DNA of 63,538 nt, counting the filler, from Craspedostauros australis (taxonomy: Eukaryota): the NCBI GenBank assembly GCA_030167865.1. It is 15 parts of 15 records of this genome, joined end to end, with 100 filler letters (N's around TTAATTAATTAA, not from the genome) between each part and the next. Parts side by side here need not be neighbours in the genome. Positions count along the whole stretch, not along the records: positions 17,151 to 25,503 come from JALAGF010006392.1; 14 more parts are not named here. One strand, 5' to 3'. Shown piece by piece: positions 4,573 through 57,902 of this stretch. The notes under the pieces are model-generated. The model had not been told where the DNA came from, ran no database searches, and saw only the letters and a list, made by a program, of their open reading frames with translations. Each line of letters begins with the position of its first letter. The stretch's first letter is position 1. The position numbers and the translations under genes are program-made.

Positions 4573-4672
4573 NNNNNNNNNNNNNNNNNNNNNNNNNNNN
4601 NNNNNNNNNNNNNNNNTTAATTAATTAANNNNNNNNNNNNNNNNNNNNNNNNNNNNNNNNNNNNNNNNNNNN
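4573..4672. other. Artificial scaffold linker (44 N + TTAATTAATTAA + 44 N), first of 14
   Basis: The same 12-mer, with stops in all six frames, starts at 4617, 7682, 10003, 12333, 17095, 25548, 31256, 35209, 38694, 40448, 47160, 49419, 57947 and 60980, always embedded in N runs. Confidence 0.97.
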
Positions 4673-7637: not shown

Positions 7638-7737
7638 NNNNNNNNNNNNNNNNNNNNNNNNNNNNNNNNNNNNNNNNNNNNTTAATTAATTAANNNNNNN
7701 NNNNNNNNNNNNNNNNNNNNNNNNNNNNNNNNNNNNN

Positions 7738-8180
7738 TTGATGATCACCCCATCTGGAGATCATGGCACGTGTCAGCCAGGGACTAGAACAACTCAGAAA
7801 GGGCATCATCCATGACACCAATCATGACACCAATNNNNNNNNNNNNNNNNNNNNNNNNNNNNNNNNNNNNNNNNNNNNNNNNNNNNNNNNNNNNNNNNNN
7901 NNNNNNNNNNNNNNNNNNNNNNNNNNNNNNNNNNNNNNNNNNNNNNNNNNNNNNNNNNNNNNNNNNNNNNNNNNNNNNNNNNNNNNNNNNNNNNNNNNNN
8001 NNNNNNNNNNNNNNNNNNNNNNNNNNNNNNNNNNNNNNNNNNNNNNNNNNNATGCTGCTGCAGGAGATGCTACATGAGAAACGAAAGGCAAAGGAGCTGA
8101 AGAGAATGAACTCACAGTTCTGAATAGTACGATCTAACAACCAATTAGTTCTTACTAACACTAACCCCGGATTTCCAACA
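7738..8180 (+). mobile_element. Partial LTR family B1 (3' half), abutting a copia pol
   Basis: Matches the reverse complement of 20016-20423; ends TAACCCCGGATTTCCAACA. Confidence 0.85.
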
Positions 8181-9958
8181 TGCAGATGCATCCCATCATG
8201 CCAACAGACGACGACAAGACTTGCACAGCCATCACCAAGAATCCATCCAAGGAGATCAGCGCAGTGAACCTGCATCGCATGCTCGGCCACGCGCCACTCG
8301 AGACCATGAAGCGGACGGCCGCTCAGTACGGATGGAAGATCATTGGCGAGATGCCGGTATGTCGNGACTGCGCGNTCGCGAACGCAAGAGTGAANAACAT
8401 NCNGAAGGCAACCATNCCNAGAGCAACTCGCCGCGGCGAACGNCTCTTCATTGACATTAGTTACACTAAACACATAAGCTTCGGAGATAAACGCTACTGG
8501 ACCCTGATCGTGGACGACTGCACGGATCACTGCTGGAGTTTCTTTCTCAAGAACAAGAGTGACCAACCAGGGTACATCAAACGATTCATCCAAACGATCA
8601 AATCACAGACTGGTGACCAACAGATCATCTTCCAAGGTGACAACAGCGGAGAGAACAAATCCACGCAGGATATTCTCATCGATGCANNNNNNNNNNNNNN
8701 NNNNNNNNNNNNNNNNNNNNNNNNNNNNNNNNNNNNACAGACTGGTGACCAACAGATCATCTTCCAAGGTGACAACAGCGGAGAGAACAAATCCACGCAG
8801 GATATTCTCATCGATGCAGGACTCAACATGAAATTCGAATATACGGCATCGAACACGCCGCAACAAAACGGCAGAGTAGAACGCAAGTTCGCGTACCTCT
8901 ACACCAAGATCCGCTCCATGCTCAACGGAGCACAACTCGACAAAGAGTATAGGCATGGCCTGTGGGCAGCAGCTGCTAGCACTGCCACCGCCATCGCCAA
9001 TATCACTGTAGCGAAGAACCAGAAGGAGTCACCACATCGACAATTCTTCGGTAACGATCCACCATATGCGGATGCACTCCGCACTTTCGGAGAGGTGGGT
9101 GTTGTGAAGACTACCTACGGCGGGATCACCGCCAAACTCAAGAANAGAGGAGAAGAGATGGTGTTCATCGGATATGCACACCAACATGCATCAGGGGTCT
9201 ACAACATGTACAGACCATCGACCAAATCATTGGTCTGCTCTCGTGACATCAAATGGCTCAACCAATCATACGGACAGTTCCGTGGCTGGGCACCAACACC
9301 GAACATATCCAACGAAATAGGAACAACGGACGCAGACGGCTTCACAACCATCGGACGGAAGGGAGCAACGCCAAGGACTGCAACGCGTCAAACATCGGAA
9401 GCGAAGAGAGTATCTTTCGCTGACAGCAACAGGTACTACATCCTATCGGACAGAGATGATGAAGATGATGAGGACGATGGAGCAGTAACCCAACTAATCC
9501 ATAACGACGAGGAAGATCGGAGCGAATCCAATCATGAGGATGACGAGATCCTACCATCCGGCGACGAAGCCGATGATGACACAGGCGTTACTCCTCCGAA
9601 CACACCAGCGAGGTCTACACATGACACACTATCCAGACCTCCACCGAGCAAACCAAGCAAGCGTGACATAGCTAGAAAGGAGAGGATCCGACGTCACGAA
9701 GCACGAGGCAGGAAGGGAGAAACTAATCCCAAGTCAACTGCAGGGAAGAGTATTCCCAGAGCTCTGCGTGAGCTCGCAGACTTCAACGAACGAGGTCGAA
9801 AGGAAGAAGGCTATGAGAGCGAACCATCATCCGATGAGGCGAGCGACGAACTCAGCGACGAGATGATCGATGATTCCAACAACGAAACTACAGATGATGA
9901 AGAAATCATGGATGAAGGAGAGATCGAGATCACTCACCATAGTACAACAGGATTGTAC
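8181..9958 (+). CDS. Ty1/copia integrase region of pol (partial)
   Basis: HHCC zinc finger LHRMLGH...CxDC; DDE core LFIDIS / QGDNSGE / TPQQNGRVER; C-terminal MVFIGYA...GVY. The ATG at 8180 is created by the LTR end. Confidence 0.92.
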
Positions 9959-10679
9959 NNNNNNNNNNNNNNNNNNNNNNNNNNNNNNNNNNNNNNNNNN
10001 NNTTAATTAATTAANNNNNNNNNNNNNNNNNNNNNNNNNNNNNNNNNNNNNNNNNNNNAAGAGTCCAAATCCTGCTTTGTTTGAGCACTTTGGAAGCATA
10101 GATGCATCTTTTCGCATTTACAATGCCGATAGAGGGCGATAAGTGCATTTGTGTACATCAAAGCCCCAATTGAGGCACTAGCTACCGCTTGGCACAATTG
10201 CACAATCCCATACATACTCCGCAATGCCGTTTTTGGTTGTTTGTTTGCTTGTTTGTTTGNNNNNNNNNNNNNNNNACTCCCTTCATCGCTGTTGGACGAT
10301 ACATGCGCTGTCATGTAGTCCAGGTCGCGGACAATTGTGATGTTGCTCCTCCCTGGACGGGACTATTTCTCCCGTCCTGGAACCAACGAGCATCACGTTA
10401 CACCAGTACGACTGGTATGTTGCGATTCTTCTATCTACAGATAACAGTGGATTCATCGTTGTTGAGAAGGTCGAGAGGGCGGTGTAGGCCTGCCCTCCAT
10501 GGCAGTAGGGATGGGATGTGATGGTGTTGGAACACTGCTATTTGGCTTTTGTATGGTCGATTCTGTCTTGGTTCACGCCAATGCCACCCCTCAAGCACGG
10601 AGATGTAGAGGTTTGGGGTTGTTTGGGCATTGCAAATTGGGCAGTCTTCCATCACAAAAACAATCTTGCAGCATTCATC

Positions 10680-13570: not shown

Positions 13571-13925
13571 GCGAAAGCCACAACAGCAAAACGAGAACAC
13601 ACAGCAACNCCACAAGGAACACAGAACGGGACGAAACGCAGCGGACATCACGTGCAAAACAGGCACACACGAACACAGAAGCACAACGACACAACACGAC
13701 AAATCTTTCATCGCAGCACAAGGCCAAACGTCGCCTCTCAGTTCACCCACAAACACCAGCCGGAGGGAACGCCCACACCAAGCCTGGCTGAGTCGAGTTG
13801 AGCTGACGGAGAAGTGTCGGAAGATCACCAACTGCCACTATCATTGCCGTCGTTGTCGCCGTTGCCGTCAGTAATCCATATAGTACACGTGATACCTGGA
13901 CTAGTACATCCACGAAGGCACAAAG

Positions 13926-15098
13926 ATGAATCCCAAGCAGAAGCAGAAGCAGCAGGCATCAACGAGAAGCTATTCCTGCGGGAGGGTTATTCTGGCGATC
14001 GGGGCCGTGCTATCCGTCGCCCAGCTCTTGGCCCGCATCAAAACCACCCCGGTGAGTTTCGTAGGATATGGCATATCCGCTGCAAGCAATACGGAGTGCA
14101 AGCCCAAGGATGACCTCGAGCAGGATTTCAAGTTGGCGTACGATGAGTCCTACGGCGTGCTGGATGGCATCCCCAATGACAAATGGAAACAAGCACAGTC
14201 CTGGGCTCGAAGCTTTGGCTTCCACCAGTACCCGGACGATCCAGCTCGATTGCTCCCCCAAGGACAGTCCTTCTGGTTCTTCGTCAACTACGACCCCTAC
14301 TTTGCATGCCCGTACAGCAAACGAATCGGCGGGTTGGGAGATGGCCCCAAATGGACTTGCAACCTGGATCGTCTCAAGGACATCGGTCAGGATCGTTGGA
14401 AGGCGGATGTAGCAAGTGGCAAGCACATTTCCATCAACGCTGACGACGGCGGCGAATCACCATCGTCTACTGCTGCTGCTGTAGCCACAGCTGAGTACGA
14501 TGCATCGAAGTACGGCTGCCTCGTCTACTCCATCGGAAGCAATGGGAACTACCTCTTCGAGGATGCCATTCAAGCACAGCTTGGCAGGGAGGCGTGCGAA
14601 ATCCACGTGTTCGATTTTTCAGGTGACTTCGAGCGCAAGGAGAACGCTGAGAGGAACATCCACTTCCATCAGTGGGGATACAAGGGATCCAAGACCCAAG
14701 ACGCCGACCTCCCAGCCGGCAAGGCTCACATGTTCACCGATCTGTTCGAGATCATCAAACGGTTGGGACACGAGGACCGAGTCATCGATCTCTTCAAGAT
14801 CGACTGCGAGCGTTGCGAGTACATCTCCTACGAAGACTTCACCAAGTACGAGAAGATTAGGCAGATTCTGATCGAGATCCACTCCCCACCACCACTCCGC
14901 GATGAAGACGCCAAGGCCCCGAACGCGCAAGCAGAACCGCGCGTGACAAGACAAACCAAGGTGCTGGTCAACTTCTTCGATTCTTTTGCTCAGAATAATC
15001 TCATCATGTTCTCGAAGGAACCCAATCCATGGTGCAGAGGATCATGTCTGGAGTACTCCTTCATCCGTCTCAAACCATCGTTCCTCAATCCTAACTGA
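13926..15098 (+). CDS. Methyltransferase-domain protein (Methyltransf_22 / METTL24-like) with N-terminal membrane anchor
   Basis: Motifs CP..KRIGGLGDGPKWTC, CLVYSIGSNG, CEIHVFD, IDLFKIDCE.CE and QILIEIH; hydrophobic segment VILAIGAVLSVAQLL; 390 aa, intact. Confidence 0.88.
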   Translation: MNPKQKQKQQASTRSYSCGRVILAIGAVLSVAQLLARIKTTPVSFVGYGISAASNTECKPKDDLEQDFKLAYDESYGVLDGIPNDKWKQAQSWARSFGFHQYPDDPARLLPQGQSFWFFVNYDPYFACPYSKRIGGLGDGPKWTCNLDRLKDIGQDRWKADVASGKHISINADDGGESPSSTAAAVATAEYDASKYGCLVYSIGSNGNYLFEDAIQAQLGREACEIHVFDFSGDFERKENAERNIHFHQWGYKGSKTQDADLPAGKAHMFTDLFEIIKRLGHEDRVIDLFKIDCERCEYISYEDFTKYEKIRQILIEIHSPPPLRDEDAKAPNAQAEPRVTRQTKVLVNFFDSFAQNNLIMFSKEPNPWCRGSCLEYSFIRLKPSFLNPN

Positions 15099-15709: not shown

Positions 15710-15853
15710 CAACGTATCATGGAACACAACGATAACATCGTGGTTTGAGAATCCTGGCGTCCCAATCGTCATCCTCACTCTCACAATTTTCAAAAGAACC
15801 ACAACACCAACCACAACACCACAAATACAGAAACAATCACAGCAACAATTACC

Positions 15854-16894
15854 ATGACGCCATCCAACAAAAGAAGCAACGACAACAAGACAGCCATCAT
15901 TTTCGGTGCCACGGGAGCCGTTGGACGACACCTGGTGGATATCGTCGTTGCAGAACAACCCAGCTGGACTGTCCTGGCTGTTTCTCGCAATGCAGAGACG
16001 AAGATCTTCTCGCATCTGCCTTCCGTCCAGGTCCTCCAAGGCGATCCCAACAACCGAGAGTCGGTCCTCGCGCTGTCGAAGGATGCCGATATCGTGTACT
16101 CATGCATCGGCTTCAACAGATACGAGGCCAAGTACTGGTCTAAGCACTGGCCGATCATCGCGGACAACCTCCTCGCCGGATCCAACCAGCAACTGCACCA
16201 AAAACTCGTATTTTGCGACAACCTCTACGCCTACGGCAGCGGCAACATCTCTCCCAGCAAGGATCCTGCGCTTTACGTGCAGCCAACCTCGCGACCATCC
16301 AAGCCAGGAACAAGGGCAGCGATGTGGAAGCAATTCCAACCCCGATTGGATGACAACCGCATGGTGATCGTCGGAGGCGCCGACTTTTTCGGTCGATACG
16401 TCACGGCCAGCGGCTTCATGGGAGAGACTTTCGTCGGCGCCATCACCAAAGGGCAGAAGCCCATGGCAGTTGGATCGTCCACCGTCGTCCACGACTTTTG
16501 CTTCGTCCCAGACTTCGCCCGCGCGCTTTACGTCGCGAGCATCAATGACGACGCGTACGGTCGCAAATGGATCTGCCCGCACACCATCCATGGCAAATCG
16601 ATGACGGACATCGCGCAGGATGTTGGCCAGATCGTGCAGGCACAGAACGGGAAGTCAGGAAGGAAGCGCGCCAAGAAAATCTTGGTGACCACATACTCCA
16701 AGCGATTCATCTGGATGCTCTCACCCTTCGTCGGGATCATGGGAGAGATCCTCGAGATGTTGCCCATCTGGACGAAGGACTACACCGTCGACGACTCCGA
16801 CTTCATCGATACGTTCGGCATGAAGGCAACGCCGTACGATGAGGCGCTGAGGTCGTATGTCGATTTCTGGAAGGGTGAAGTCGAGCCACAATAG
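15854..16894 (+). CDS. NAD(P)-dependent epimerase/dehydratase, atypical SDR
   Basis: Rossmann IIFGATGAVG plus LVFCDNLYAYG, DFFG and HDFCFVPDFARAL; 346 aa, intact and intronless. Confidence 0.88.
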   Translation: MTPSNKRSNDNKTAIIFGATGAVGRHLVDIVVAEQPSWTVLAVSRNAETKIFSHLPSVQVLQGDPNNRESVLALSKDADIVYSCIGFNRYEAKYWSKHWPIIADNLLAGSNQQLHQKLVFCDNLYAYGSGNISPSKDPALYVQPTSRPSKPGTRAAMWKQFQPRLDDNRMVIVGGADFFGRYVTASGFMGETFVGAITKGQKPMAVGSSTVVHDFCFVPDFARALYVASINDDAYGRKWICPHTIHGKSMTDIAQDVGQIVQAQNGKSGRKRAKKILVTTYSKRFIWMLSPFVGIMGEILEMLPIWTKDYTVDDSDFIDTFGMKATPYDEALRSYVDFWKGEVEPQ

Positions 16895-17150
16895 GACGAT
16901 GAAGAGGAGATGGAAGTGTGAGAATGCTGTCGATGGGATCATCGACGGAATGGAATAGCCGTAGAGTGTGGAAAGTGTGAGCACGAGCGCAGATAGTCTT
17001 GTTTCGGCGTGGCAAGTACAAGCATTGGGGAAGAGAAGGCGAGCTTCAGANNNNNNNNNNNNNNNNNNNNNNNNNNNNNNNNNNNNNNNNNNNNTTAATT
17101 AATTAANNNNNNNNNNNNNNNNNNNNNNNNNNNNNNNNNNNNNNNNNNNN

Positions 17151-18450
17151 AAAGACAACGATGGTTCCACTCCCCTTCATCGGGCATGTCGCAACGGCAA
17201 GCGGGAGTGTGCGAAGTACCTCATCGAATCATGCAGGGCCGACGCCAACTGCAAAGACAATGATGGTTCCACTCCCCTTCATTGGGCATGCCCCAACGGC
17301 CAGTTGGAGTGTGTGAAGTACCTCATCGAATCATGTGAGGCTAACATCAACTGCAAAACCAAGGATGGTTCCACTCCCCTTCATGTGGCATGCCCCAACG
17401 GCCACCTGGAATGTGTGAAGTACCTCATCCAATCATGTGAGGCAGACATCAACAGGAAAGACAACAATGGAAACACTCCCCTTCATGTGGCATGCCCCAA
17501 CGGCCACCTGGAGTGTGTGAAGTACCTCGTCGAATCATGTGAGGCAGACATCGACTGGAAAGACAACAATGGTTGGACTCCCCTTCATCATGCATGCCGC
17601 AACGGCCAGCTGGAGTGTGTGAAGTACCTCATTGAATCATGTGAGGCAGACATCAACAGGAAAGACAACAATGGAAACACTCCCCTTCATCACGCATGCC
17701 ACAACGGCCAGCTGGAGTGTGTGAAGTACCTCGTCGAATCATGTGAGGCAGACATCAACTGGAAAGACAACAATGGAAACACTCCCCTTCATCATGCATG
17801 CCGCAACGGCCAGCTGGAGTGTGCGAAGTACCTCATTGAATTATGCAGGGCTGACATCAACTGGAGAGACAATGATGCTTCCACTCCCCTTCATTGGGCA
17901 TGTCGCAACGGCAAGCGGGAGTGTGCGAAGTACCTCATCGAATCATGCAATGCCGACGCCAACTGCAACACCAACGATGGTTCCACCCCCCTTCATGTGG
18001 CATGCCGCTGTGGCCAGCTGGAGTGTGTGAAGTACCTCATCGAATCATGTGCGGCGAACATCAACTGCAAAGACAATGATGGTTGGACTCCCCTTCATTG
18101 GGCATGCTCCAATGGCCAGCTGGAGTGTGTGAAGTACCTCATCGAATCATGTGCGGCGAACATCAACTGCAAAGACGACGATGGTAGAACTCCCCTTTAT
18201 TGGGCATGCTACAGCGCCCACCCAGAGTGTGTAAATTACCTTATCAAATCATGTGGGGCCGACGCCAACTGCGAAGACAATGACGGTGAAACTCCCCTTC
18301 ATTGGGCATGCCACAACGGCCAGTTGGAGTGTGTGAAGTACCTCATCGAATCAGGCGCGGCGAACATCAACTGCAACACCACCGATGGTTCCACTCCCCT
18401 TCATTGGGCATGCCGCAATGGCAAGCGGGAGTGTATGGAGTCCCTCATCA
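17151..18450 (+). repeat. Coding tandem array of 13 x 102-bp ankyrin units
   Basis: The T-P-L codons (ACTCCCCTT or a synonymous variant) recur from 17169 to 18393 at exact 102-nt spacing. Confidence 0.95.
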
Positions 18451-19466
18451 GAGGACTTTCGCCTTCAGCTCACCCACAACTGCAACAACTGCAGCAACGC
18501 TTACAACAAAACGAACAAGCAAATGAACAGCCACAAGAACAGTTGGGACAGCAGTTGAAGCGAAAGAAGCACGAGAATGAACACAAACACAATAGCCACA
18601 AGAGGACCAACATCAGCATTGGAGAAGACCGACTCAGACCCTTCCAACTCGAGAACAGGGCGGACACCATCTTCTTGTGTGGACAGGGCGACGAACAGCA
18701 ATCAATCAAGGCAAACTCTGCAGTCCTCATTGTCACTGTTCCATCCATTCAGACATTGATCAACTCCGGAATCCAACATCAATGCACTCACGATGGTGCT
18801 CAAGATGGAACTGATCCCATCCAAACGACCATCCCTCTTCCCAACCTCCAACCAAAACATGTTCGACACGTCCTCCAATGCATCTACACAGGTGAGATGT
18901 CCTTCGACAACAGCGCTCATGAAGACAACACCAATACCGGTGACGCAAACCAACCAACTCCCACCCTCAATGGACAGGACGATCTGCAACAGCTGATCCT
19001 GGTGGCCAACGAGTTCGGCTTCTGGCAACTCAAGCTTGTTCTTGAAGCGGAGTTGGCCCGCAAGCATCTCACAGAGGACACCTTGATAGACGCATTGATT
19101 TTTGCCGATCAACACAACTGCGTGGTGTTGAAGGATGCAGCAATGAGAATGGCAGGTGAACATGAGAATACACTGTTCACTCATCCAGATTTCAAGAAAA
19201 TGTTTCATCACCCTCACCTAATGGGAGTCATTCATGACCTCTGCCATGGTAGAATGGAGAGTGACGGACTTGATGATGAGTACAGTGGCATGTCCATGAT
19301 GGACCTGTACAAGGCTGTGGGTGAAGACGAGGGGATCGCGCAAGTGGATTCATACATGGATTGGGTGACATTGGTGGACTTCGTGCGCTCCTCTGCACCC
19401 TCCATGGTGGCTGACACCGATGGCGCTGTTGAGGAAGAGGAATGGATCACAACAACAGCAGACTGA
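17151..19466 (+). CDS. Ankyrin-repeat / Gln-rich linker / BTB-BACK protein (5' partial)
   Basis: Frame open from the contig edge; 13 TPLH ankyrin repeats; from ~18660 a BTB (ADTIFLC...VLQCIYTG...ANEFGFWQLKL) and a BACK-like helix (LIFADQHNCVVLKDAAM). Confidence 0.9.
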   Translation, partial: KDNDGSTPLHRACRNGKRECAKYLIESCRADANCKDNDGSTPLHWACPNGQLECVKYLIESCEANINCKTKDGSTPLHVACPNGHLECVKYLIQSCEADINRKDNNGNTPLHVACPNGHLECVKYLVESCEADIDWKDNNGWTPLHHACRNGQLECVKYLIESCEADINRKDNNGNTPLHHACHNGQLECVKYLVESCEADINWKDNNGNTPLHHACRNGQLECAKYLIELCRADINWRDNDASTPLHWACRNGKRECAKYLIESCNADANCNTNDGSTPLHVACRCGQLECVKYLIESCAANINCKDNDGWTPLHWACSNGQLECVKYLIESCAANINCKDDDGRTPLYWACYSAHPECVNYLIKSCGADANCEDNDGETPLHWACHNGQLECVKYLIESGAANINCNTTDGSTPLHWACRNGKRECMESLIRGLSPSAHPQLQQLQQRLQQNEQANEQPQEQLGQQLKRKKHENEHKHNSHKRTNISIGEDRLRPFQLENRADTIFLCGQGDEQQSIKANSAVLIVTVPSIQTLINSGIQHQCTHDGAQDGTDPIQTTIPLPNLQPKHVRHVLQCIYTGEMSFDNSAHEDNTNTGDANQPTPTLNGQDDLQQLILVANEFGFWQLKLVLEAELARKHLTEDTLIDALIFADQHNCVVLKDAAMRMAGEHENTLFTHPDFKKMFHHPHLMGVIHDLCHGRMESDGLDDEYSGMSMMDLYKAVGEDEGIAQVDSYMDWVTLVDFVRSSAPSMVADTDGAVEEEEWITTTAD

Positions 19467-20015
19467 GAAGTGAACGAATGCTAGATTAGAGTTGATGTGT
19501 AAAATTAGTGGTCAGAGCAGTATCTATTGTGTAAGGAGGCGATCAACGATGCATGCAATGTCACGCCCGGCATGTTTGTGACGAGTTATTGTGCACACGA
19601 TCGCATCGTTTACAGCACAGCCTGGCTGGACTGCAAGGCGCGATCTTCTGCCATCGGAAGGTTCGCGTCGTCCGCCATTGCATTGCTGATGACCATGACG
19701 CTGTCTTGTATGTGATCCTGGTTGGTGTCCAGCACGTTCGTGTGTGGTATCATCGGACAGTGTGGCACAAAGACGGTGGTCTGGCCACCGCTGTCATCGT
19801 CGTCGTCGCCGATCATACGGTTTTCCATGATGTGGAAAGAGTTGTGTGAGAAAGGGATGCGGACTCCACGGACTTCATGCATGGATTGTAGTACTCCACG
19901 ACAACTTGACAGAGCAGGATGGACTGCTACTGTGCCTTGCTGTTGCTGCGACAGTCTGTCGATGATATCGCGCAAGGCGCACTCCAGCTACCACATGGCT
20001 ACCGATGCAGCCAAC

Positions 20016-20659
20016 TGTTGGAAATCCGGGGTTAATGTTAGTAGGAACTAATTGGTTGTTAGATCGTGCTGTTTTAGAACTGTGAGCTCATTCTCTTCAG
20101 CTCCTTTGCCTTTCATTTCACATATAGCATCTTCTGCAGCAGCATCACATTGTACTGTTGCCTTCATGCATCTTATCTTCATGCTTCTGCGCTTGCATAC
20201 ATGAGATCATATCTGCAGGCATCTTTGTCATGCATCTCACCATGCATATCATCATTCTACATTCCCTGTGGTACGATTCCACAGTCTTGCGTTTCGCTCT
20301 TGATCTCCTGACACCAAACTTTACGATTGGTGTCATGATTGATGTCATGATTGATGCCCTTTCTGAGTTGTTCTAGTCCGTGGGTGACACGTGCCATGAT
20401 CTCCAGATGGGGTGATCATCAATGTGTCGGTCATCATCTTCCTTCACATGGTTTAGATGTCGTGGCCTTTTCTTGATTCACAGAGGACAGGCTTGTTTTC
20501 CTGGTAAGACTGGGGTCATTCACGTGTGGTTTCGTGTCGTGGGTGGAATGGACAATATTCAATGGTGTGACGAATAATATCCAAAGGTGTGACAAATAAT
20601 GTTGAGAGTTGCGGCAATCATGGGTATCTTCGACAGAGTCGTACCCTCGATTCCTGACA
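20016..20659 (-). mobile_element. Complete LTR, family B1 (644 bp), with no internal domain and no TSD
   Basis: Minus-strand termini TGTCAGGAATCG...GGATTTCCAACA; same family at 7738 and 30790; flanks GCCAAC and GATGTG do not match. Confidence 0.88.
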
Positions 20660-22276
20660 GATGTGTTGCGACAGTGCAATGGCGCAATCTCGTGGGATAG
20701 AATTGCATGGAAACTGGCAGGCAGCGGAAACCCGCAAGTCGTTGGTCCAAAGTGTATTCGCAAATTCGTCATGGGATTGGAAGGCAGCGAGTACCGTTCT
20801 ACAACAATGCTCCCTATGATCAATGGCACCACTACAACAAAGCGCGACATCTGGGCTAAGGACTTCTGTGTGTTCTGGGAATCAGCTAAGCTGTTTGAGA
20901 ATACGCAAGTTGTCCTTGTCCACATGGACAAAAAATGGTTCTACTCCATTGTCGCTCGCAAGCATCTCAAACATGTGCCCCAGATGGGAGTTAAGCCTGT
21001 TCACCATGCTGTGCACCACAGTGCCACATTGACAAGACCATGGCAATTGCATCAACAGCATTTGCCCCAACAGACAACCGCTTTGAGCGAGGAGGAAAGG
21101 CGTATCGGGTGAACTTCGAGCGTGTTGGGCGCAAGGCTCCAGCGCAAAAGACTACGTACAAGCGAACTTGGGTCTCGCCAACGGAGTACAGGTACATTCA
21201 TGATAAGAACAAAATCTCTTGCAAGAAGGGTGAACTGTACTTCCAAGCACTGGAGATCACAGGCAGCAAGGAATCAGTTGGTGCACCTGATAAACCCAAG
21301 CCGAAATACAGCCTCAAGAAATTCTTCCGCGAAAAAGAAATCCCCGCACTGGATTCGCTCGCCAGCAAAATCAAGGCCGAAACGGGCAAGAACATGGTGA
21401 TTCGGTACCAGATGGATGGCGCGGGGCCACACAGAGACACGGAACGACTCAGATTCATCAACGAGGAGTTCGACAGTCGCGGATGGCACTTACGACTGCA
21501 ACCACCAAATTCTCCCATCACGAATGTGAAAGACGATGCGATATTCCCAGCGATGTCGAAGCACGTGTCAGCATACCAAGGTACGAACCATGGAAGCCAC
21601 ATGCTTACCACTGACGCATTGTGGGATGCTTGCAAAATCTGTTGGGAACAATTTGGGCTGGACAAGGTGGCGCGTGCGTATGTTCGCCACCATCAGATCG
21701 CCTACGCAATTTGTGCTGCGAAAGGAGGTGACGAATTTGTGACGGAGAACAAGGGACTGAGCATGAACGTGCGGAAACAAACGTTCACTGAATTTGACGA
21801 GATCGGCAACAAGATCGGCGTTACTGTCTCACATGGACTTCGCGTTGGAGGAGGATGAGGCAACCAACGCAACTACCAAGAAACCAGCTGCAACAGGCAA
21901 CAAAGGCAAATCAGCTGGCTTCAAATACGCCAAGCCCAACATCAAAGGTATGTACAATTATGCGCTCAAGGTGATGGCTGTCAGTGGACTGCAGTGCCTG
22001 AAAACGAACCTGCCAACAACCAGCAGCCTCATTCCGTTGCTGGAGAAGCAAATCATTGAGACCATCAAATGTGACAAGGAGACTGAACAACAGAAGAAAG
22101 ACAAGGAGAAAAAGAAGACGCCCAGGAAGAGCAAAGCCAAGGTCATTGAGCCTCACAACAACAACAGCAACACCAAGGCAGCACCCACCATGAACGCATT
22201 CGAAGTGGCCTGTCTGGCTGGCAAGGCCGAGCATCACAGCAAAGCAGAGGAGGATACCAACACAGCAGAGATGTAA
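20660..22276 (+). pseudogene. Tc1/mariner-superfamily transposase (DD39D-like, here D38D spacing), 5'-truncated and frameshifted
   Basis: Motifs LVHMDKKWFY, YQMDGAGPH and LQPPNSPITNVKD; frameshift near 21020 and a probable second one near 21845. Confidence 0.75.
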
Positions 22277-22369
22277 CTGCAAATCGTAGTAGTAGTGATG
22301 ATATGTGTGAGGTACACCTGTGATTCGAATGGTTGTGTGCGCATCGTCTGCTTGATGGCATGGAGGATT

Positions 22370-23151
22370 TGTTGGAAATCCGGGGTTATAGTAGTAGACT
22401 AATCTGTTATCAGTCTGTACCGTTTTAGAACTGTGAGCACAACATGCTCATCTCNNNNNNNNNNNNNNNNNNNNNNNNNNNNNNNNNGCAGTAGCCACCC
22501 GAGGTTACACCCTTTAGCTTGGCTCCTTTCGTCTGCATCTTCATCTTGCTTTCATCGTGGTTCATCGTTTGCTTGGCTGAGGATTGGAGAGCACCTACAT
22601 TCGTCAAGTTCATACTCGTAGACCTGTAGGTACCTCTCCTTTGGTCTCCTGTCACCTCACTGGTCCCACTTCATTTCAGTTCCTCCCTCTGGTCATCTCG
22701 ATGGTTGCCTTTGGATACTTGGAACTTATTGTCATCTGGATTGTGGTCTTGAGTGAATAGGGATCGCCTCTGTTTCGCTTTCTCACATTAGGTTCTCAGA
22801 GACGCGTCGACTTGTTCAGATATATTGGTTGTCGCGNNNNNNNNNNNNNNNNNNNNNNNNNNNNNNNNNNNNNNNNNNNNNNNNNNNNNNNNNNNNNNNN
22901 NNNNNNNNNNNNNNNNNNNNNNNNNNNNNNNNNNNNNNNNNNNNNNNNNNNNNNNNNNNNNNNNNNNNNNNNNNNNCTGTCCGAGTGCAACGGATCGATT
23001 GCTAGGTTGCGGTTTGTCTGGTAGATGCTATTGGGGGTTGCGGCAATCATGGGTATCTTTTCACTTAATACCATTCTGGTTCCAGTCAGTCCTTATGGGA
23101 GCTGCGGTAGAATAGGGTATCTTTGCAAAGTCGTACCCCCGATTCCTGACA
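22370..23151 (-). mobile_element. 3' LTR, family B2
   Basis: Preceded on the minus strand by PPT GGAAGGG (23152-23158); termini TGTCAGGAATCG...TTTCCAACA. Confidence 0.88.
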
Positions 23152-23245: not shown

Positions 23246-23567
23246 TTAATCCATGGTTGATCTCAATTGAATGATGTTCCCATTGTGTCTATCGTAGATC
23301 TCCTTCTTTGTGTTCTTGGTGAAGCCGTCTGCGATGTTGTCCTCTGAGCGCACAAATTGAATTCGTGCCTCTCCGTTGTCTATCAGCTCCCGAGTGAAAT
23401 GATGTCGTATATCAATGTGTCTCGTTCGCGCTGATGTCGACGGATTGGAGGCAATGAAGATAGCCCCCACATTGTCCACGTATACATCCACTGGTTTGGT
23501 CATCGTCAAGCCGATGTCCTCCATTAGCTGCGTGAGGAAGCGAATCTCTTTTCCTGCTTCTGATAGG
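23246..23567 (-). CDS. Copia RNase H C-terminus (second copy or haplotype of 23995-24316)
   Basis: VDNVGAI, HIDIRHH and NIADGFTK motifs; differs from the neighbouring copy by a few SNPs across a 50-N gap. Confidence 0.85.
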
Positions 23568-23617
23568 NNNNNNNNNNNNNNNNNNNNNNNNNNNNNNNNN
23601 NNNNNNNNNNNNNNNNN

Positions 23618-23900
23618 TTGCCATCCTCATAGATCTCTCCGTTCCCGACCGTTATTGGGACATGGCCGAGTAGGCCACTGGATGAGGGTGCTTGGATGTC
23701 GTATAAGACAGGTAAGGCCATTGGGCTGTCCGAGTGCAACTGGTCGATTGCTAGATTGCGGTTTGTCTGGTAGATGCTATTGGGGGTTGCGGCAATCATG
23801 GGTATCTTTGCACTTAATACCATTCCGGTTCCAGTCAGTCCTCATGGGAGCTGCGGTAGAATAGGGTATCTTTGCAAAGTCGTACCCCCGATTCCTGACA
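23618..23900 (-). mobile_element. Partial LTR B2 (5' part), with PPT at 23901-23907
   Basis: Near-identical to 22977-23151 where they overlap. Confidence 0.85.
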
Positions 23901-23994
23901 CCCTTCCATTGTCGCACTACCATACTCACCCACACACAAATCCTCTCTCGTCACACTCCCTTGCCTCGTTCTTCCACTCATCCCATCTGTCTCA

Positions 23995-25503
23995 TTAATC
24001 CATGGTTGATCTCAATTGAATGATGCTCCCTTTGTGTCTATCGTAGATCTCCTTCTTTGTATTCTTGGTGAAGCCATCTGCGATGTTGTCCTCTGAGCGC
24101 ACAAACTGAATTCGTGCCTCTCCGTTGTCTATCAGCTCCCGAGTGAAATGATGTCGTATATCGATGTGTCTCGTTCGCGCTGATGTCGACGGATTGGAGG
24201 CAATGAAGATAGCTCCCACATTGTCCACGTACACATCCACTGGTTTGGTCATCGTCAAGCCGATGTCCTCCATTAGCTGCGTGAGGAAGCGAATCTCTTT
24301 TCCTGCTTCTGATAGGGCGACGTATTCCGCCTCTGTTGAGCTGAGAGTTACACTTCGTTGTGCCTTTGATCTCCATATGATGGGCACCCCTTGCAGTAGG
24401 ACAAGATGTCCCCCGACACTGATTCGGTTATCCTTGTCTCCCGCAAACTCACTGTCTGCGTAGATCTCGATCTTCCATGTGTCGTTCTCTAATGGGGCTG
24501 GTTGCATTCGTAGTCCGTAGTCCTTCGTGTCCGATACGAACTTCATTACTCGCAGCATCTCCTTGTATGCTGCANNNNNNNNNNNNNNNNNNNNNNNNNN
24601 NNNNNNNNNNNNNNNNNNNNNNNNGAGGAAGCGAATCTCTTTTCCTGCTTCTGATAGGGCGACGTATTCCGCCTCTGTTGAGCTGAGAGTTACACTTCGT
24701 TGTGCCTTTGATCTCCATATGATGGGCACCCCTTGCAGTAGGACAAGATGTCCCCCGACACTGATTCGGTTATCCTTGTCTCCCGCAAACTCACTGTCTG
24801 CGTAGATCTCGATCTTCCATGNGTCGTTNTCNAATGGGGCTGGTTGCATTCGTAGTCCGTAGTCCTTCGTGTCCGATACGAACTTCATTACTCGCAGCAT
24901 CTCCTTGTATGCTGCAGCTGATGGTCCGTCCAGCACCTTGGTAAGTTCCCGCACCGCATTCGCGATGTCTGGTCGCGAATGCTTCACCAAATATAGCAGC
25001 ATGCCTACTCCGCTTCTGTATCTGCTGTGTCGGTCACTATCCACTTTGGGTAGGTTGCTGTTTCTCTGGATACCCTGTCCTGGTGTTCCTGGAGTTCCGT
25101 ATTGTTGTAGAGTCAGCACGTCATCCTTGAATGTATCGATGATGTTCTTGATGATGTGTGGCTGGTTCACCCAGCAGTTCGACTGGTNGTTGTTGAAGAN
25201 GATCTTGCAGCTGAGGTAGTCTTCGAGGTCGTTNTCCACCTTGATTCCGAATTGCTCAGCTTTGATGTCGATNGTCAGTTGCTTCAANTCCNCCTTNTCT
25301 CCNATGCATAGGCAGTCGTCGACGTAGGTGCCTATTAGCAGTAGTCTCCCTTCCTGATTCCGAATCAGAAGGCATGGATCCACTTTGCTCTGTCGAAATC
25401 CCAGCTTGAGTAGAATGTTGACCAGCTTTTTGTTCCATTGTCTGGCGCTCTGCACTAGTCCGTAGATGGTCTTCTTGAGCAGCAAGCATTCGTCGGCCTC
25501 ATG
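23995..25503 (-). CDS. Ty1/copia reverse transcriptase - RNase H (5' partial)
   Basis: LKKTIYGLVQSARQW, QSKVDPCL, YVDD, YADSEFAGD, SSTEAEYVA and NIADGFTK. Confidence 0.95.
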   Translation of the reverse strand, partial: HEADECLLLKKTIYGLVQSARQWNKKLVNILLKLGFRQSKVDPCLLIRNQEGRLLLIGTYVDDCLCXGXKXXLKQLXIDIKAEQFGIKVXNDLEDYLSCKIXFNNXQSNCWVNQPHIIKNIIDTFKDDVLTLQQYGTPGTPGQGIQRNSNLPKVDSDRHSRYRSGVGMLLYLVKHSRPDIANAVRELTKVLDGPSAAAYKEMLRVMKFVSDTKDYGLRMQPAPXXNDXWKIEIYADSEFAGDKDNRISVGGHLVLLQGVPIIWRSKAQRSVTLSSTEAEYVALSEAGKEIRFLXXXXXXXXXXXXXXXXXAAYKEMLRVMKFVSDTKDYGLRMQPAPLENDTWKIEIYADSEFAGDKDNRISVGGHLVLLQGVPIIWRSKAQRSVTLSSTEAEYVALSEAGKEIRFLTQLMEDIGLTMTKPVDVYVDNVGAIFIASNPSTSARTRHIDIRHHFTRELIDNGEARIQFVRSEDNIADGFTKNTKKEIYDRHKGSIIQLRSTMD

Positions 25504-25603
25504 NNNNNNNNNNNNNNNNNNNNNNNNNNNNNNNNNNNNNNNNNNNNTTAATTAATTAANNNNNNNNNNNNNNNNNNNNNNNNNNNNNNNNNNNNNNNNN
25601 NNN

Positions 25604-27314: not shown

Positions 27315-28111
27315 GCCTTATTTTAATTTTTATCTCTGACCCACGTCAGCCAATGACCGTACGGTCGCTACAGGATCCTGAAAAAAATGGGCTCCTATAG
27401 AGACTATAATTTAATCATATGTACTTCAACACATCGGTAATAAGGTAGGAGTGTTAGACAGTGAGTCCAGGCCTTGGTTATAAACTTATGATGGCGTCAG
27501 CCTAGCGTTTTAGAGGCAAAACGTGATGCAAGCAAACCGGGATATGTATGAAACCGTTGAAATGGCGTTACACGATAGTCGCCACTATCAATCATGGACG
27601 ACATAGCAATGAGACAACTGCACCGACGCATACGACATCGATAAGACTCATAATCTGCATCTTTACTCTTTTTCGCTCTAAACCGGTTTCACGTGTGTCG
27701 AAACTTGGTTTATCATTCTCATCCGCTCATGCGGGCATGTGCGAGCGTGCGGGGACCGCCTGAAGAGGCGACGATAATACTGGGACCCCGCTCCGAGGGT
27801 GGACCGTCACCAAGCCGGCACTGCTTGTACTGTGCTGCATCCTCTTTGACCATGATGTGTTGACGCAGATGGTCACACGGAAACCCCTACTGCGACACGC
27901 GCTGTCATCAGCGGAAAGATCGTGTGCCTTGTTGCCCGGTCCGTGCTTCTCATCGCGGGTTGTTACCGCAAAACACACGTTGAGCCATTTTTTCACGACG
28001 AAAACACACCATGTCCCAGTGTGGTTTTCTTGTCAACACAACTCTCTCCCCTTTCTCCACTTCTTTCTCTCACCATCATCATTATCACCACTACGTACGA
28101 AAATCATCAAC

Positions 28112-30789
28112 ATGGCAGCCGCTGCAAATGCAAACGTGAACGAGATACGTGACTATTGCAAGAATGTACTCAGCTTCCCTGACGATGACATCGTCGATGC
28201 TTTGGAAGATCAAGGCTTGACCAAATTCGACAACTTTCTCTCCATTACCAACAAAGGTGTTACTGCCCTGTGCAAGCGCATCTGCGATGGCAGTGGGTTC
28301 ATCGAAAACCCAGCATACAAGGCAGGAGCCAAGGGCAACATACCACCACAAATCAAGGACCCAGGCATCAGTGTTGGTTGGGTTCATGAGACAAAGCTCC
28401 GTCAACTCCGTTATGCACGATTCCACTTCCAACGTATCCAACGCCCTTTACGGCAGCAGAGGCGCCCATGGACCGCCTCGTCGCGCTGTGGGAGCTCTTC
28501 TTGGAGGAACAACGTGTCAAGAAAGAAACAGAGCCAGACATGCCAGAACGGCTGGTCAAAGTGGACCGCATCTGTGACAGCCTTGAAGACATTCAGAACT
28601 ACTTGGAGAACACGCATGGTGCACTTGACACTCCACTCTCCTATGTGATCCGTGAGGATTCACGTAAACCTGAGGATCGCACACCAGCCATCAACAACAG
28701 GTTTGGTGTACCTACCATGAAAGAAGAATTGATTGACCGCGCAATCCATGAAGGCATCCGATATGACGCAGACAACGCCAAAGTATGGCAAGTGGTTTGT
28801 CATGTCACGCATGGAGGACCTGCATGGGCTTGGGTCCAAGGCTTTGAGCGCTCACGCAATGGTTGTGCAGCATTCATCGCTCTCAAAGAACATTACCATG
28901 GCGACTCATTCTAAGCACGCACCAAGGCAGCCGCATCCAAAACAATCGCAACCAGTTTCTACGACGGAAAATTGCGTCAATTCTCTTTCGAACGATACAC
29001 ACAAATCATGAAAGGCGCATTGGAAGACATGGCACAATGTGGTGAACCATTGGTGAACGCGGCGAAAGTGCGTCACTTCCTCGATGGTATCCGCGATTCG
29101 CGTCTCGACAGCGCATGTGTTGCTATCAAGATCAATGAAGCCCTTCACAAAGATCTACCGGGTGCCATCAATGTCCTGAGCAAAGTCATTGACCACAAAC
29201 AAATCGCATCACCCAGACACTCTATTGGTTCAATGGGCCGTGGCAAAGGCGGTCGCAACAACCGCAATGGAACACCAAGCAAGGGTGGTCGCGGCGGTCA
29301 AGAAAAACCCAAGAAATACGACCCTGACATGGTCATTACGGATCGCCACTACTCACCAGAGGAATGGTCGGTCATGTCGTCTGCACACAAGACCAAGGCA
29401 CTTGAGATGCGTGCAGAACGGGACAAGCGCCGTGGGGTTATGTCGGTGGGCAGAAACACGCCATCGAAACGCTCCCACGACAAGACAGATGGTCACTATG
29501 GACCACGCGATACTACGAACCAAGGCAACGGTCAAACGGGTACCAACAATCAGGCTGGTATTGGCAGCATGGCCACTCGTCACAACCAACAAGGACGTTC
29601 CTGACTGCGAAGTCACACTTGACGGCTCACATCTGTTAGCATGTCTCTGTCGTCTGATACCCCACGGGCAGAACTCGATTTGCATGCGGATACATGTTGT
29701 TTTGGTGACACTGTGTACATTGTGCATCAGACCGACCAAACCGTCACTGCAACCCCTTTTATTGACTCACTTGGGTCCATCGATAATGCACCAATCGTCA
29801 CAGCTGCGATAGCATACGATGATCCAGTTACATATCAAACATTCATTCTTTTCTTTCCACAATCGATCTACTTTCCTCGTCTTGAACATCCTTTGTTGTG
29901 TCCAAACCAAATGAGGGCTGCGGGTATAGTCGTGAATGATGTTCCTCTGCTCATGATCAAAGAGCACGAACGGAAGCCGGAAGACCACTCCGTGGTCTCA
30001 TTCGACGACGACCTACACATTCCTCTACGGTTGCAAGGCACTGTATCCTACTTCCACATGAGGAAGCCAACACAACAAGAAGTCCAATCCGATCGTGACT
30101 GCATCCATGTCATGATGACACAAGAGGCTACATGGGACCCATCCCAATGGTTGTCAGGGGACGACGAAGATGCCATCCGTGCATCTCTCTCATCACAACG
30201 AACCATATCATCCATCAGCATCCATGGCACGCACACGTCCAATCGAAAGGGGACTATTACACCGGATGTCCTTGCACAACGCTGGCGCATCGGAACAGAA
30301 GCCGCATCACGTACTCTTGACGCAACAACGCAACTGGCCATTCGTGACTTTCGTCATGCTTCAGGAACACGTCTTCTCAATCCATACGCCATGCAACTAC
30401 GATATCGTCGGCTCAACACCCAACTCTACGCCGACACCATGCACGCAAAGACCAAGTCGATTCGTGGCAACAAATGTGCCATGATATACTGTACACCGTT
30501 TCACTGGGTCCGGGTGTACCTGATGGCGGAACGCAAAGAAGCACATCGCACACTTGACGAACTGTTTCGTGACCACAGCATCCCACACACCATTATTCCA
30601 GACAACGCAAAAGAGCTCGTGGCTGGCGAATTCCGTCGCAAGCTACACAGAGCACAAGTCTCCATCTGTCCAATCGAGGCATACATCCACAACCAGAACA
30701 AAGCAGAAGAAACCATCCGCGAACTCCGCTAACATTACCGACGTTTGATGACATCGACAGATACACCGGAATACTTGTGGGATTATTGT
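28112..30789 (+). pseudogene. CoDi-type copia gag-protease-integrase, degenerate and interrupted by LTR B1
   Basis: Gag motifs PLSYVIR, DNAKVW, NG..AF.AL..HY and YSPEEW; protease ELDLHADT; integrase YADT / PDNAKE / QNKAE; frameshift ~28450; stops at 28912, 29602, 29620 and 30730. Confidence 0.88.
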
Positions 30790-31211
30790 TGTCAGGAATC
30801 GAGGGTACGACTATGTCGGAAAGATACCCATGATTGCCGCAACTCCCAACACTATTTGTCACACCTTTGGATATTATTCGTCACACCATTGAATATTATC
30901 CATTCCACCCACGACACGAATCACACGGGAATGACCTCAGTCTTACCAAGCAAACAAGTCTGTCCTCTATGAATCAAGAAAAGGACACGATATCTAAATC
31001 ATGTGAAGGAAGATGATGACCGACACATTGATGATCACCCCATCTGGAGATCATGGCACGTGTCACCCACGGACTAGAACAACTCAGAAAGCGCATCATC
31101 CATGACACCAATCATGACACCAATCGGAAAGTTCGGTGTCAGGAGATCAAGAGCGAAACGCAAGACTGTGGAATCGTACCGCAGGGAATGTAGAATAAGG
31201 ATATGCACGAC
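30790..31211 (+). mobile_element. Partial LTR B1 nested in the integrase
   Basis: Starts TGTCAGGAATCGAGGGTACGAC immediately after the ...LWDYC codons; matches 20659 onward on the minus strand. Confidence 0.9.
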
Positions 31212-42151: not shown

Positions 42152-42235
<84 letters not shown>

Positions 42236-42258
42236 NNNNNNNNNNNNNNNNNNNNNNG

Positions 42259-42340: not shown

Positions 42341-42342
<2 letters not shown>

Positions 42343-56057: not shown

Positions 56058-57902
56058 TCAGTCTGCTGTTGTTGCCGTTGGTGCTCATTTCGCTTCCTCG
56101 GCAGCGCCGTCGCTCTCAGCCACCCTGGAGGATGTGATGGAACGCACGACGCGATCTATGTACGAATCCATCTGCGCAGCACCCTCGTCTTCATCCACAA
56201 CCTTGTGCAACTCCATAATGGACATGCCACCATGCTCATCATCACCTCAATCGGGTCACCATTTCCCCGCTGCGAAGGACATGAATGCCTCCCATCAGTT
56301 GATGGTGTGGAATCAGCTTGCTGAAATCTGGATGAGTGAACATATCTTTCTCACTTTCAGCTGCCATTCTCATTGCTGCATCCTTCAACACCACGCAGTT
56401 GTGTTGATCGGCGAATATCAACGCATCTATCATGTTGTCCTTTGTGATGTGCTTACGGACCAACTCTGCTTCAAGAACAAGCTTGAGTCGCCAGAAGCCG
56501 ATCTCGTTGGCCACAAGGATCAGCTGTTGCAGATCGTCCTGTCCATTGAGGGTGGTAGTTGGCTGGTTTGTGTCGCCGGTATTGGCGTTGTCGTCATGAG
56601 TGTTGTTGTCGAAGGATATCTCGCCTGTGTAGATGCATTGGTGGACGTATCGGACGTGTTTTGGTTGAAGGTTGGGAAGAGAGACGGTTGTTTGGATGGG
56701 TTCAGTTCCGTTGTGAGCGTCATCATTCGCGCGGTGAAGTTGGGTTCCTTTGTCGATCAGTGTCTCAATGGATGGGACGGTGATCATGAGAACTTCAGAG
56801 CTTGCCTTGATTGGTTGTTGTTCATCGCCTTGTCCACACAAGAAGATCGTGTCTGTCCTGTCCTCAGTTGAAAGGATCTGGGCCGGTCTTCCCAAGTGCT
56901 GATGTTGGTCCTCTTGTGGGTACTGTGTTTGTGTTCATTCTCTTGCTTCTTTCACTTCAATTGCTGTCTCAACTGTTCTTGTGGTTGTTCATTCTCTTGT
57001 TCCTTCAGCTTCAACTTCTGTTGCAATAGTTGTCGCAAATGCTCCTCCTGTTCCAACTGTTGTTGCAATGGTTCAATCTCTTGCTCGTTTTGTTGCAAGT
57101 GTTGTTACAGTTGTGGGTTGCGGTGGCTGGGACGCTTAATGATTAATCTCTTGATTTTGGCGTAATCTTCTGCATCGAGCAAATCGAGGGGTGTGTTGTT
57201 GCCGTTGTTTTGTATGTCGACATCGGCATTGGCTGATCCAATGATGTACTCGATACACTCCAGGTAGCCATCACTGCATGCGTAATGAAGGGGAGTCCAA
57301 CCATGGTTGGTTTGGCAGTTGATGTTCGCCTCACATGATTCGATGAGGTACTCGATACACTCCAACTGGGCACCAAAGCATGCCGAATGAAGGGGGGTGT
57401 CACCATGGTTGTCTTTGTAGCTGATGTTAGCACCACATGATTCGATGAGGTACTTGACACAGTCCAGCTTGCCGAACATGCATGCCCAATGAAGGGAAGT
57501 GGAACCATTGTTGTTTTGGCAGTTGATGTTTGCTCCACATGATTCGATGAGGTACTCCGCACACTCCATGTGGCCGTTGGAGCATGCCCGATGAAGGGGA
57601 GTGTTGCGCTGGTTGTCTTTGCAGTTGATGTTCGCCTCACATGATTTGATGAGGTACTTCACACACTCCAGGTAGCCACGGTCGCATGCGAAATGAAGGG
57701 GAGCGTCACCAGGGTTGTTTTGGCAGTTGACGTCCGCCCCACATGATTTGATGAGGTACTTCACACACTCCAGCTGGCCGTTGCGGCATGCCGCATGTAG
57801 GGGAGTGGAACCAACCCAGTCTGTAACCTTGTTGACATCAACTCCTTCGTTCTGCGTCTCGTCCTGCTTCTTCCATTCCTTCAACACCGACAAGTCACCT
57901 GC
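56058..57902 (-). pseudogene. Ankyrin-BTB paralog, pseudogene (5' partial)
   Basis: Six 34-aa ankyrin repeats plus a cap; in-frame TAA at 57105 and TGA at 56952; frameshifts near 56866 and ~56250; BTB region clearly homologous to 18660-19466. Confidence 0.88.

Follow-up and report, generated by a model that had tools for sequence, protein, structure and literature searches.

The gene at positions 17151..19466 of the window, a 63,538-nt stretch of contigs from the pennate diatom Craspedostauros australis (assembly GCA_030167865.1) joined by N spacers, encodes a tandem array of ankyrin units fused to a SPOP-like BTB-BACK adaptor domain. An earlier note on this DNA had treated it as a single gene; it is instead one of about 200 in the genome. 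The family comprises about 170-230 single-exon genes with about 1,500 units, and their substitution patterns make diversifying selection on the ankyrin binding face highly likely. This suggests a fast-evolving recognition repertoire in a diatom. As an account of the whole, we consider a host-encoded, lineage-restricted repertoire of variable protein binders the best explanation, at somewhat better than an even chance.

The frame at 17151..19466 (+) encodes 771 residues: ankyrin units, a Q-rich linker and the BTB-BACK. Contig G000:C6392 begins at 17151, directly behind an assembly spacer, so the frame has neither a start codon nor an N-terminal cap (N-cap). Reading in frame from 17151, we found 12 full units of 102 nt and the first ~23 codons of a 13th. 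The earlier note's 13 units of 102 nt therefore hold for 12, whereas the 13th is partial, and since the contig edge cuts the 5' end of the gene, 13 is a minimum. Tandem Repeats Finder reported a period of 102, 12.7 copies, 83% matches and 0% indels, and all units are distinct, the closest pair lying 6/102 nt apart. Pfam recognized Ank in 13 stretches, BTB above cut-off (E 1.7e-6) and BACK below it (E 0.003). The parts of the gene are listed below; hypervariable codons of the unit are called hot codons, and copies with a broken BTB frame BTB-lost.

17051..17150 (no strand): assembly spacer (44 N, TTAATTAATTAA, 44 N) between separate contigs; the 5' end of the gene (start codon, N-cap, possibly further units) is missing
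17151..18374 (+): 12 full 34-codon (102-nt) ankyrin units; hot codons 4, 6, 11 and 14 (weaker 2, 3, 15 and 17) in a conserved scaffold
18375..18449 (+): partial 13th unit, passing directly into the linker without a C-terminal cap (C-cap), an ending typical of the BTB-lost subfamily
18450..18620 (+): Q/E/K-rich linker, of widely differing length among paralogues; it matches BTB-lost copies best
18621..19067 (+): BTB domain with two low-confidence insertions; the loop after helix 3 reads G-I-Q-H-Q; mosaic of subfamilies
19083..19244 (+): 3-box/BACK helices; Pfam below cut-off, fold and hidden Markov model (HMM) match to SPOP
19296..19394 (+): two C-terminal helices common to diatom MATH-BTB proteins, without a Pfam match in this copy
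19464..19466 (+): stop codon TGA

From its composition, the linker is probably a coiled coil. The part of diatom MATH-BTB proteins that matches the two C-terminal helices is SAP-like (E 2.6e-6 in P0149, 0.047 in P0142). Contigs of one sequencing run (X1, whose RNA nature is a guess) numbered 1,176 over 17151-19425, were few over 19601-20125 and absent over 20126-22400. A second run (X2) gave no contigs over the gene, and neither run gave a piece spanning the array.

A genome search with the BTB part returned 154 matches among the 147 scored of 394 candidates. From the 150 matches listed we set aside 2 window copies, merged 3 split pairs and dropped 9 with <700 nt upstream; the remaining 136 were fetched and, with the gene at 17151..19466, make up the 137 loci analyzed. 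Units occur in 125 of these (824 units, 800 distinct), and the 12 loci without units are contig ends or older, divergent ANK-BTB genes. The family plan is constant: one exon encodes an N-cap, 1-60 units, in most cases a C-cap, a Q/E/K linker whose length varies and BTB-BACK. Family size was estimated by scaling motif matches by their hit rate in the sample; the assembly is fragmented and may, here and there, contain both haplotypes. The N-cap motif (197 matches genome-wide; present in 102/117 sampled loci) gives about 225 genes, the BTB motif (65 matches; 48/128 sampled) about 170, and the unit motif (966 matches; 523/824 sampled units) about 1,500 units. Reversed-pattern controls gave 0 matches. 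All 13 further ankyrin loci drawn from the unit list fit the family, with a BTB or a remnant of one in the fetched stretch of 10.

On all seven multi-copy contigs examined, genes lie head to tail in ~6-9 kb units that align at about 85%. These tandem loci (L189-L197, on G000:C6721, C6716, C4880, C6574, C4457, C3652 and C5682) are probably one long array fragmented by assembly. At least 300 nt of the tandem spacer is common to 86/149 family loci, and the spacer carries a frameshifted S/R-rich passenger frame without a Pfam match; the gene at 17151..19466 has only a weak 261-nt spacer match. Locus L063 (G000:C3870:18192-27502) is one open frame of about 2,400 residues with 60 ankyrin units and an intact BTB-BACK. 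In L038, L039, L045, L049 and L050 the linker, too, consists of variable tandem repeats and reaches about 350 residues; the ankyrin arrays of L038 and L039 are the same, while their linkers and BTBs differ. Four loci (L006, L007, L010 and L022) continue beyond the usual stop, adding a hydrophobic tail some 90 residues long, which could be a membrane anchor; in L036 the DNA of this tail sits behind a stop. Proteins P0123 and P0124 are identical letter for letter to loci L157 and L166, and P0124, an older paralogue, is taken to be transcribed because its record lists a transcriptome source. A search with an ankyrin-only member showed, among the matches listed (120 of 467, from at most 8,000 candidates), generic ankyrins only, at most 46% identical, which does not prove that close relatives are absent.

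Variation within the unit is concentrated at a few codons. Over 798 distinct N-free units, entropy at codons 4, 6, 11 and 14 is 3.1-3.8 bits, against <0.7 at scaffold codons. Per-codon selection across genome-wide units had been set beforehand as the test: in 306 disjoint nearest-neighbor pairs the ratio of nonsynonymous to synonymous differences (pN/pS) is 3.7-4.4 at these four codons and 2.1-2.7 at codons 2, 3, 15 and 17, a pattern that speaks against even or neutral variation. The test was repeated with transversions only because the units are CpG-poor (observed/expected 0.60, against 0.92 and 1.17 in two neighbor genes) and synonymous rates variable. Second positions of hot codons carry 183/1224 transversions, compared to 91/3603 at four-fold sites, a 5.9-fold excess; scaffold positions, at 21/3978, show 0.21x the four-fold rate. 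Among 81 full-full pairs the excess is 4.8x, among 151 pairs of non-full loci 6.4x and among the 102 closest pairs 8.4x. Diversity-generating retroelements mark their targets with adenine-specific changes copied from a template and have a linked reverse transcriptase; in the units, all four bases are present at positions 1-2 of hot codons, and third positions stay largely fixed. CpG decay as the sole cause of the hot codons is rejected, as the 5.9x transversion excess remains.

The residues that had been read from this array are exact: S,S,S,N,W,N,N,S,S,W,R,E,S at unit codon 6, R,W,V,V,H,H,H,W,V,W,W,W,W at codon 11, R,P,P,P,R,H,R,R,R,S,Y,H,R at codon 14 and C/R/W at codon 34. Of the sites proposed from them, codons 6, 11 and 14 are hypervariable throughout the family, whereas codon 34 is not a family-wide hot spot (transversion ratio 0.91, p=1) and codon 4 is hot but had been missed. 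Codons 29 and 34 vary in this array, yet show no family-wide transversion excess. Codons 1, 3, 4, 6, 11 and 14 correspond to positions randomized in a designed library scaffold, where all lie on one binding surface (PMC4308713). Together these patterns argue strongly for diversifying selection on the ankyrin binding face.

Units are shuffled as well as mutated. Linkage between variable sites decays within a single unit, from r2 0.10 at under 6 nt to about 0.005 at 40-60 nt. Of 780 units, 200 have their closest counterpart within the same gene, where 11 were expected, which implies both local homogenization and exchange between genes. From the last unit on, loci L079 and L081 agree in every one of 3,070 nt, and unit 1 is almost the same in both. 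Their arrays count 17 and 16 units; the inner ones come in a different order and, paired with their best matches, are still 2-15 nt apart. Near-copies lie 18-44 units apart in L063. Along the gene at 17151..19466 itself best matches switch, the linker pointing to BTB-lost copies, the BTB core to L036-L039 and BACK to L041-L047. The motifs reported as common to its non-adjacent units (RNGKREC in 1, 8 and 13, NTxDGS in 9 and 13, an alternating pattern in 3-6) are likewise exact, and the unequal crossover or conversion proposed from them is borne out family-wide by the linkage decay, the mosaics and the twin genes with different array interiors. Within this one array the signal is modest: a test akin to the pairwise homoplasy index gave p=0.012 (32 informative sites), but p=0.077 once the four hot codons were removed. 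The mean difference between units of a gene is 19 of 102 nt. We are highly confident, from these patterns of similarity, that unequal crossover or conversion has shuffled the units.

The BTB-BACK claimed for this gene is supported by its predicted model (predicted local distance difference test, pLDDT, 71.6), for which the top Foldseek matches are all SPOP (E 1.5e-7). The BTB fold is present, by Pfam and by the SPOP match, and the 3-box/BACK is represented by model helices 155-208 and an HMM match to SPOP 109-189. The MATH domain is absent, and the ankyrin array stands in its place. A profile search on the BTB-BACK picked up 14 proteins at E<=1e-30; a word-based search with the BTB part had found no homologue among 1,401 candidates, a false negative in light of the profile search, and the ESM Atlas gave generic BTB clusters only. 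The strongest relatives are ANK-BTB proteins, followed by the nearest non-ankyrin ones, MATH-BTB-BACK proteins, some with a SAP-like tail. Wherever the strongest profile matches carry a species name, it is Craspedostauros australis. From this homology, the ankyrin array appears to have taken the MATH slot on a diatom MATH-BTB adaptor.

The genome encodes CUL3, whose named relatives are diatom proteins. Because its own N-terminus is split by introns, a stand-in diatom CUL3 was modeled (P0001, 82% identical over the part compared). The predicted complex with the BTB-BACK scored 0.57, compared to 0.00 for the best control (the runs share at least 51% of contacts, and partner pLDDT is 66 or higher). 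Of solved pairs 51/78 reach the mark, as do 2/108 mismatched ones, and passes at <=0.60 are weak (5/78 solved, all 4 passing mismatches), so this pass is a weak one; complexes of this kind have been solved. Recruitment of CUL3 by full-length copies seems a little more probable than its absence. In the genome's CUL3 (L031:3478-3765 (-), G000:C2183) the BTB-binding H1-H2 region deviates, e.g. NHNTS for NRNAS and YRSSY for YRNAY, at positions (near-)invariant in 52 other diatom-like CUL3s; co-evolution with unusual BTB adaptors is possible.

Most copies have lost the adaptor. The 125 unit-bearing loci divide into 43 full copies, 66 whose frame ends ahead of the BTB or soon after entering it, 13 with N gaps, 2 with a late stop and 1 that ends with its contig. 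In the 66 BTB-lost loci the ankyrin units (39.5 kb) contain 0 stops and 0 frame switches, whereas the BTB remnants (48.6 kb) contain 48 stops and 79 frameshift-type gaps; with 47 distinct frame ends, many of these lesions are inherited, and some of the gaps counted are compensating pairs, which 4 full loci have as well. The N-cap is in frame in 60 of the 66. From only 12 synonymous events among the rare variants of BTB-lost units, 56 nonsynonymous scaffold changes and 12.8 stops would be expected; 32 and 0 are seen, and the hot-codon excess in non-full loci (6.4x) is as strong as in full copies. Open arrays, purged stops and the hot-codon excess together imply that ankyrin-only products are very probably under selection, or kept as donors. 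BTB-lost copies do not form one clade in a BTB tree (7 label changes; 0/200 bootstrap trees with 1), a tree made unreliable by recombination. The window holds a member of this class on another contig, C6402.

57105..57902 (-): second family member, BTB-lost type: part of an N-cap, about 6 units and a C-cap; open frame ending at TAA, with the contig edge truncating it 5'
56085..56934 (-): broken BTB-BACK remnant of the second member, 83% identical to the BTB of the 17151..19466 gene over 678 nt; stops separate it from the ankyrin frame

We propose the following history and mechanism. By homology, a SPOP/BPM-type BTB-BACK adaptor would have exchanged its substrate-binding MATH domain for an ankyrin array, after which one branch would have homogenized its repeats to the 102-nt unit and multiplied, largely as ~8-kb head-to-tail tandems. 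As the sequences show, changes at unit codons 4, 6, 11 and 14 are retained far more often than neutral ones. They are recombined by unequal crossover or conversion, which acts inside units, from unit to unit and from gene to gene and also alters repeat number (1-60). Full-length copies would hold a variable target on the concave ankyrin face and pass it through BTB-BACK and CUL3 to ubiquitination; BTB-lost copies would bind on their own, to block or sequester targets or as decoys, or would donate repeats. Biotic conflict with virus, parasite or bacterial effector proteins is the most likely driver, and whether the targets are foreign we judge an even call. A bolder version is improbable as a whole: a natural targeted-degrader library, in which ~200 loci and 1,500 interchangeable units would be recombined during clonal growth, and quickly enough to yield a population new specificities against viral or parasite proteins, BTB copies destroying them via CUL3 and BTB-lost copies serving as decoys, inhibitors or a donor pool rebuilding intact receptors like this mosaic gene.

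Several points weigh against the proposed binder repertoire or its degradative arm. The phi-x-E motif of CUL3-binding BTBs sits in the alpha3/beta4 loop, where the E85A change in KLHL3 severely disrupts CUL3 binding (PMC3616122). No Glu occurs at alignment positions 50-54 in 44/44 family BTBs, where the loop reads G-I-Q-H-Q, a register set by eye from model helix 42-49 and SPOP/KEAP1 sequences. Constraint on the BTB of intact copies is only moderate (ratio of nonsynonymous to synonymous rates, dN/dS, 0.57; 0.52-0.62, 21 pairs). With the BTB frame broken in 66/125 loci, against 43 full, most copies cannot themselves recruit CUL3, and the mosaic gene at 17151..19466, with its linker from the BTB-lost subfamily, may be transient. 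Unit pairs share ancestry, which makes p-values optimistic, the counts are pairwise rather than from codon models, and synonymous rates differ strongly among sites (0.2-3.5x). All copies come from one fragmented assembly, the 100% identity of four 3' ends may reflect assembler collapse, as may the perfect identity between L079 and L081, and unit order in this array is without a spanning read.

If the binder alone works, BTB-BACK would be a dimerization or scaffolding module, or vestigial, and all members would bind and block their targets. The open arrays beside decayed remnants, the in-frame N-caps, the purged stops, the undiminished hot-codon excess and the missing glutamate all fit this. 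Yet the whole frame is kept in 43 copies, with lower BTB dN/dS than in broken ones (0.74; 0.68-0.81, 33 pairs); the SPOP-like fold and 3-box are kept, and the complex model passes, if weakly. Several diatom MATH-BTB relatives likewise lack the glutamate (by eye), which may be a lineage trait, and most BTB-lost copies fall in one part of the tree and may be a derived subfamily. We regard this alternative as rather unlikely.

The binder repertoire could instead be aimed inward, at selfish elements, mating or self/non-self determinants or drive toxins rather than at pathogens. The sequence signature is the same as that of fungal self/non-self receptors (PMC4986451), many retroelement frames surround the gene in a window rich in Ty1/copia fragments, and the N-caps show no apparent signal peptide (by eye), which implies an intracellular target. 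Against internal targets, we found no linked partner gene under selection, the tandem spacer holding only its frameshifted S/R-rich frame, and we consider them unlikely.

It is about as unlikely that the assembly pieced this array together from paralogous units, making artifacts of its shared non-adjacent motifs and hybrid 3' half, an account that does not exclude the others. The contig does start inside the array, the genome offers about 1,500 similar units to confuse, and no contig spans the array. However, the units are at least 6/102 nt apart and none is identical to a unit of another sampled locus (closest 7 nt), nearly all units of the family are distinct, and mis-joining cannot give a codon-specific excess or purged stops; it would alter unit order in this copy, not the family result.

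Very unlikely is a non-adaptive origin, in which the array grows by unequal crossover while unconstrained surface codons are pushed by CpG decay. CpG is depleted in the units, several hot-codon states are CpG-related, and the ~8-kb tandems bear a dead passenger frame, but transversions, which CpG decay does not make, are in marked excess, most of all in the closest pairs, and relaxation alone would give about 1x and would not leave third positions largely fixed.

That the family is cargo of a transposon or endogenous giant virus is least probable: it is intronless and in many copies with retroelements nearby, and giant viruses carry many BTB proteins (PMC4209131), but its nearest BTB relatives are diatom-labeled ANK-BTB and MATH-BTB proteins, upstream homology ends are staggered without a single boundary, and Pfam at cut-off gave no match, to a transposase, a viral gene or otherwise, in 6 spacer frames of the repeated unit, terminal repeats not having been searched separately.

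Elsewhere in the window, a Methyltransf_22 gene and an NAD-binding epimerase-like gene at 13905-15098 and 15749-16894 (+) are ordinary genes of the neighboring contig; because contigs are joined here, their adjacency to the ankyrin-BTB gene is an artifact. Ty1/copia-type gag, integrase and reverse-transcriptase fragments were recognized by eye at 2194-4620, 8165-10006, 23246-25551, 27764-30732, 39009-43455 and 60197-63494. Short tandem repeats recur in opposite orientation ~10 kb apart on different contigs (20554-20600 and 30853-30899; 20325-20356 and 31101-31125) and look like the ends of a DNA transposon family. The open reading frame at 20995-21858 (+) is DDE transposase-like by eye, but has no Pfam match at cut-off. 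Two long AAA-ATPase/STAND-like gene fragments, at 4621-7685 (-) and 36712-38705 (+), have the P-loop GPSGSGKS and a helical C-terminus; we take them to be of kinase-ATPase-TPR type, possibly another expanded sensing family.

To our knowledge, little is known of intracellular recognition of viruses and parasites by diatoms. The family is a concrete candidate for it, with about 200 genes whose binding faces appear to be under strong diversifying selection, in what seems, judging from the labels of identical protein records, to be a species kept in culture. The claim that no such system had been described in diatoms agrees with our literature search, which found no such family; supplements and subscription papers were outside its scope, and genome papers may list it. 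Like SPOP/BPM adaptors, members have a BTB and 3-box/BACK fold behind an N-terminal binding domain; unlike them, they lack the phi-x-E glutamate, carry two insertions and are about 20% identical. The ANK-BTB proteins ABTB1/ABTB2 and plant NPR1 also place a binding domain N-terminal to a BTB; they are few and conserved and are not known to be hypervariable.

Similar in evolutionary behavior are the MATH-BTB and F-box adaptors of nematodes and plants, which expand by birth and death and for which a role in defense against pathogens has been hypothesized on indirect evidence (Thomas 2006 as cited in PMC1866355). The diatom family shares this birth-death dynamic of CUL3-type adaptors, and its BTB-BACK would derive from MATH-BTB, but its substrate-binding part is a shuffling ankyrin array, so that not only point changes but also the number and order of repeats may alter specificity. 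Birth-death families that couple a cullin adaptor to a repeat domain are also large in Parachlamydiaceae (BTB-LRR and F-box; PMC4209131); those are bacterial effectors, whereas the present family is host-derived.

Fungal NOD-like receptors (NLRs) offer a close parallel for the repeats. Their ANK, TPR and WD40 repeats of high internal conservation (HIC) in Podospora are, as here, near-identical, in tandem and variable in number, with a positively selected concave ankyrin face and with recombination inside loci and probably also from one locus to another (PMC4986451). Among paralogues of our one assembly repeat number is 1-60, and 17 and 16 in the twin copies. HIC is defined there by over 85% amino-acid identity over 100 aa; this array falls at 83% matches, a nucleotide figure rather than that article's protein criterion. 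Unlike these NLRs, the diatom proteins have no NACHT/NB-ARC (by Pfam scan) or death domain; a C-terminal BTB-BACK takes the partner role, one unit is common to about 200 loci, and a large class is without an effector module. The ROCO-LRR and NB-ARC-TPR candidate receptors of Ectocarpus, also a stramenopile, show high birth and death, diversifying selection and unit shuffling too, but with LRR or TPR repeats, one per exon, and a GTPase or NB-ARC, instead of ankyrin units in one exon and a BTB (PMC3341825). Designed ankyrin repeat proteins (DARPins) and ANK-N5C share the N-cap, self-compatible internal repeats and C-cap, and library positions 3, 5, 10 and 13 equal hot codons 4, 6, 11 and 14 (PMC4308713, PMC8683736); the diatom proteins differ in being natural, with 34 rather than 33 residues per repeat, a Cys-rich scaffold, 1-60 repeats and the BTB-BACK fusion.

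The family is thus neither an NLR nor a canonical SPOP-type member. Hypervariable repeat receptors and birth-death ubiquitin adaptors are each already known; here the two strategies are joined, the shuffled repeats of fungal NLRs and brown algae with the cullin adaptors of nematodes and plants. What is distinctive is the coupling to BTB, the scale and the BTB-lost majority, an unexpected class in which the adaptor has been dropped and the selected binder kept. In the family as a whole, engineered ankyrin binders and ankyrin-BTB degraders have a counterpart in nature.

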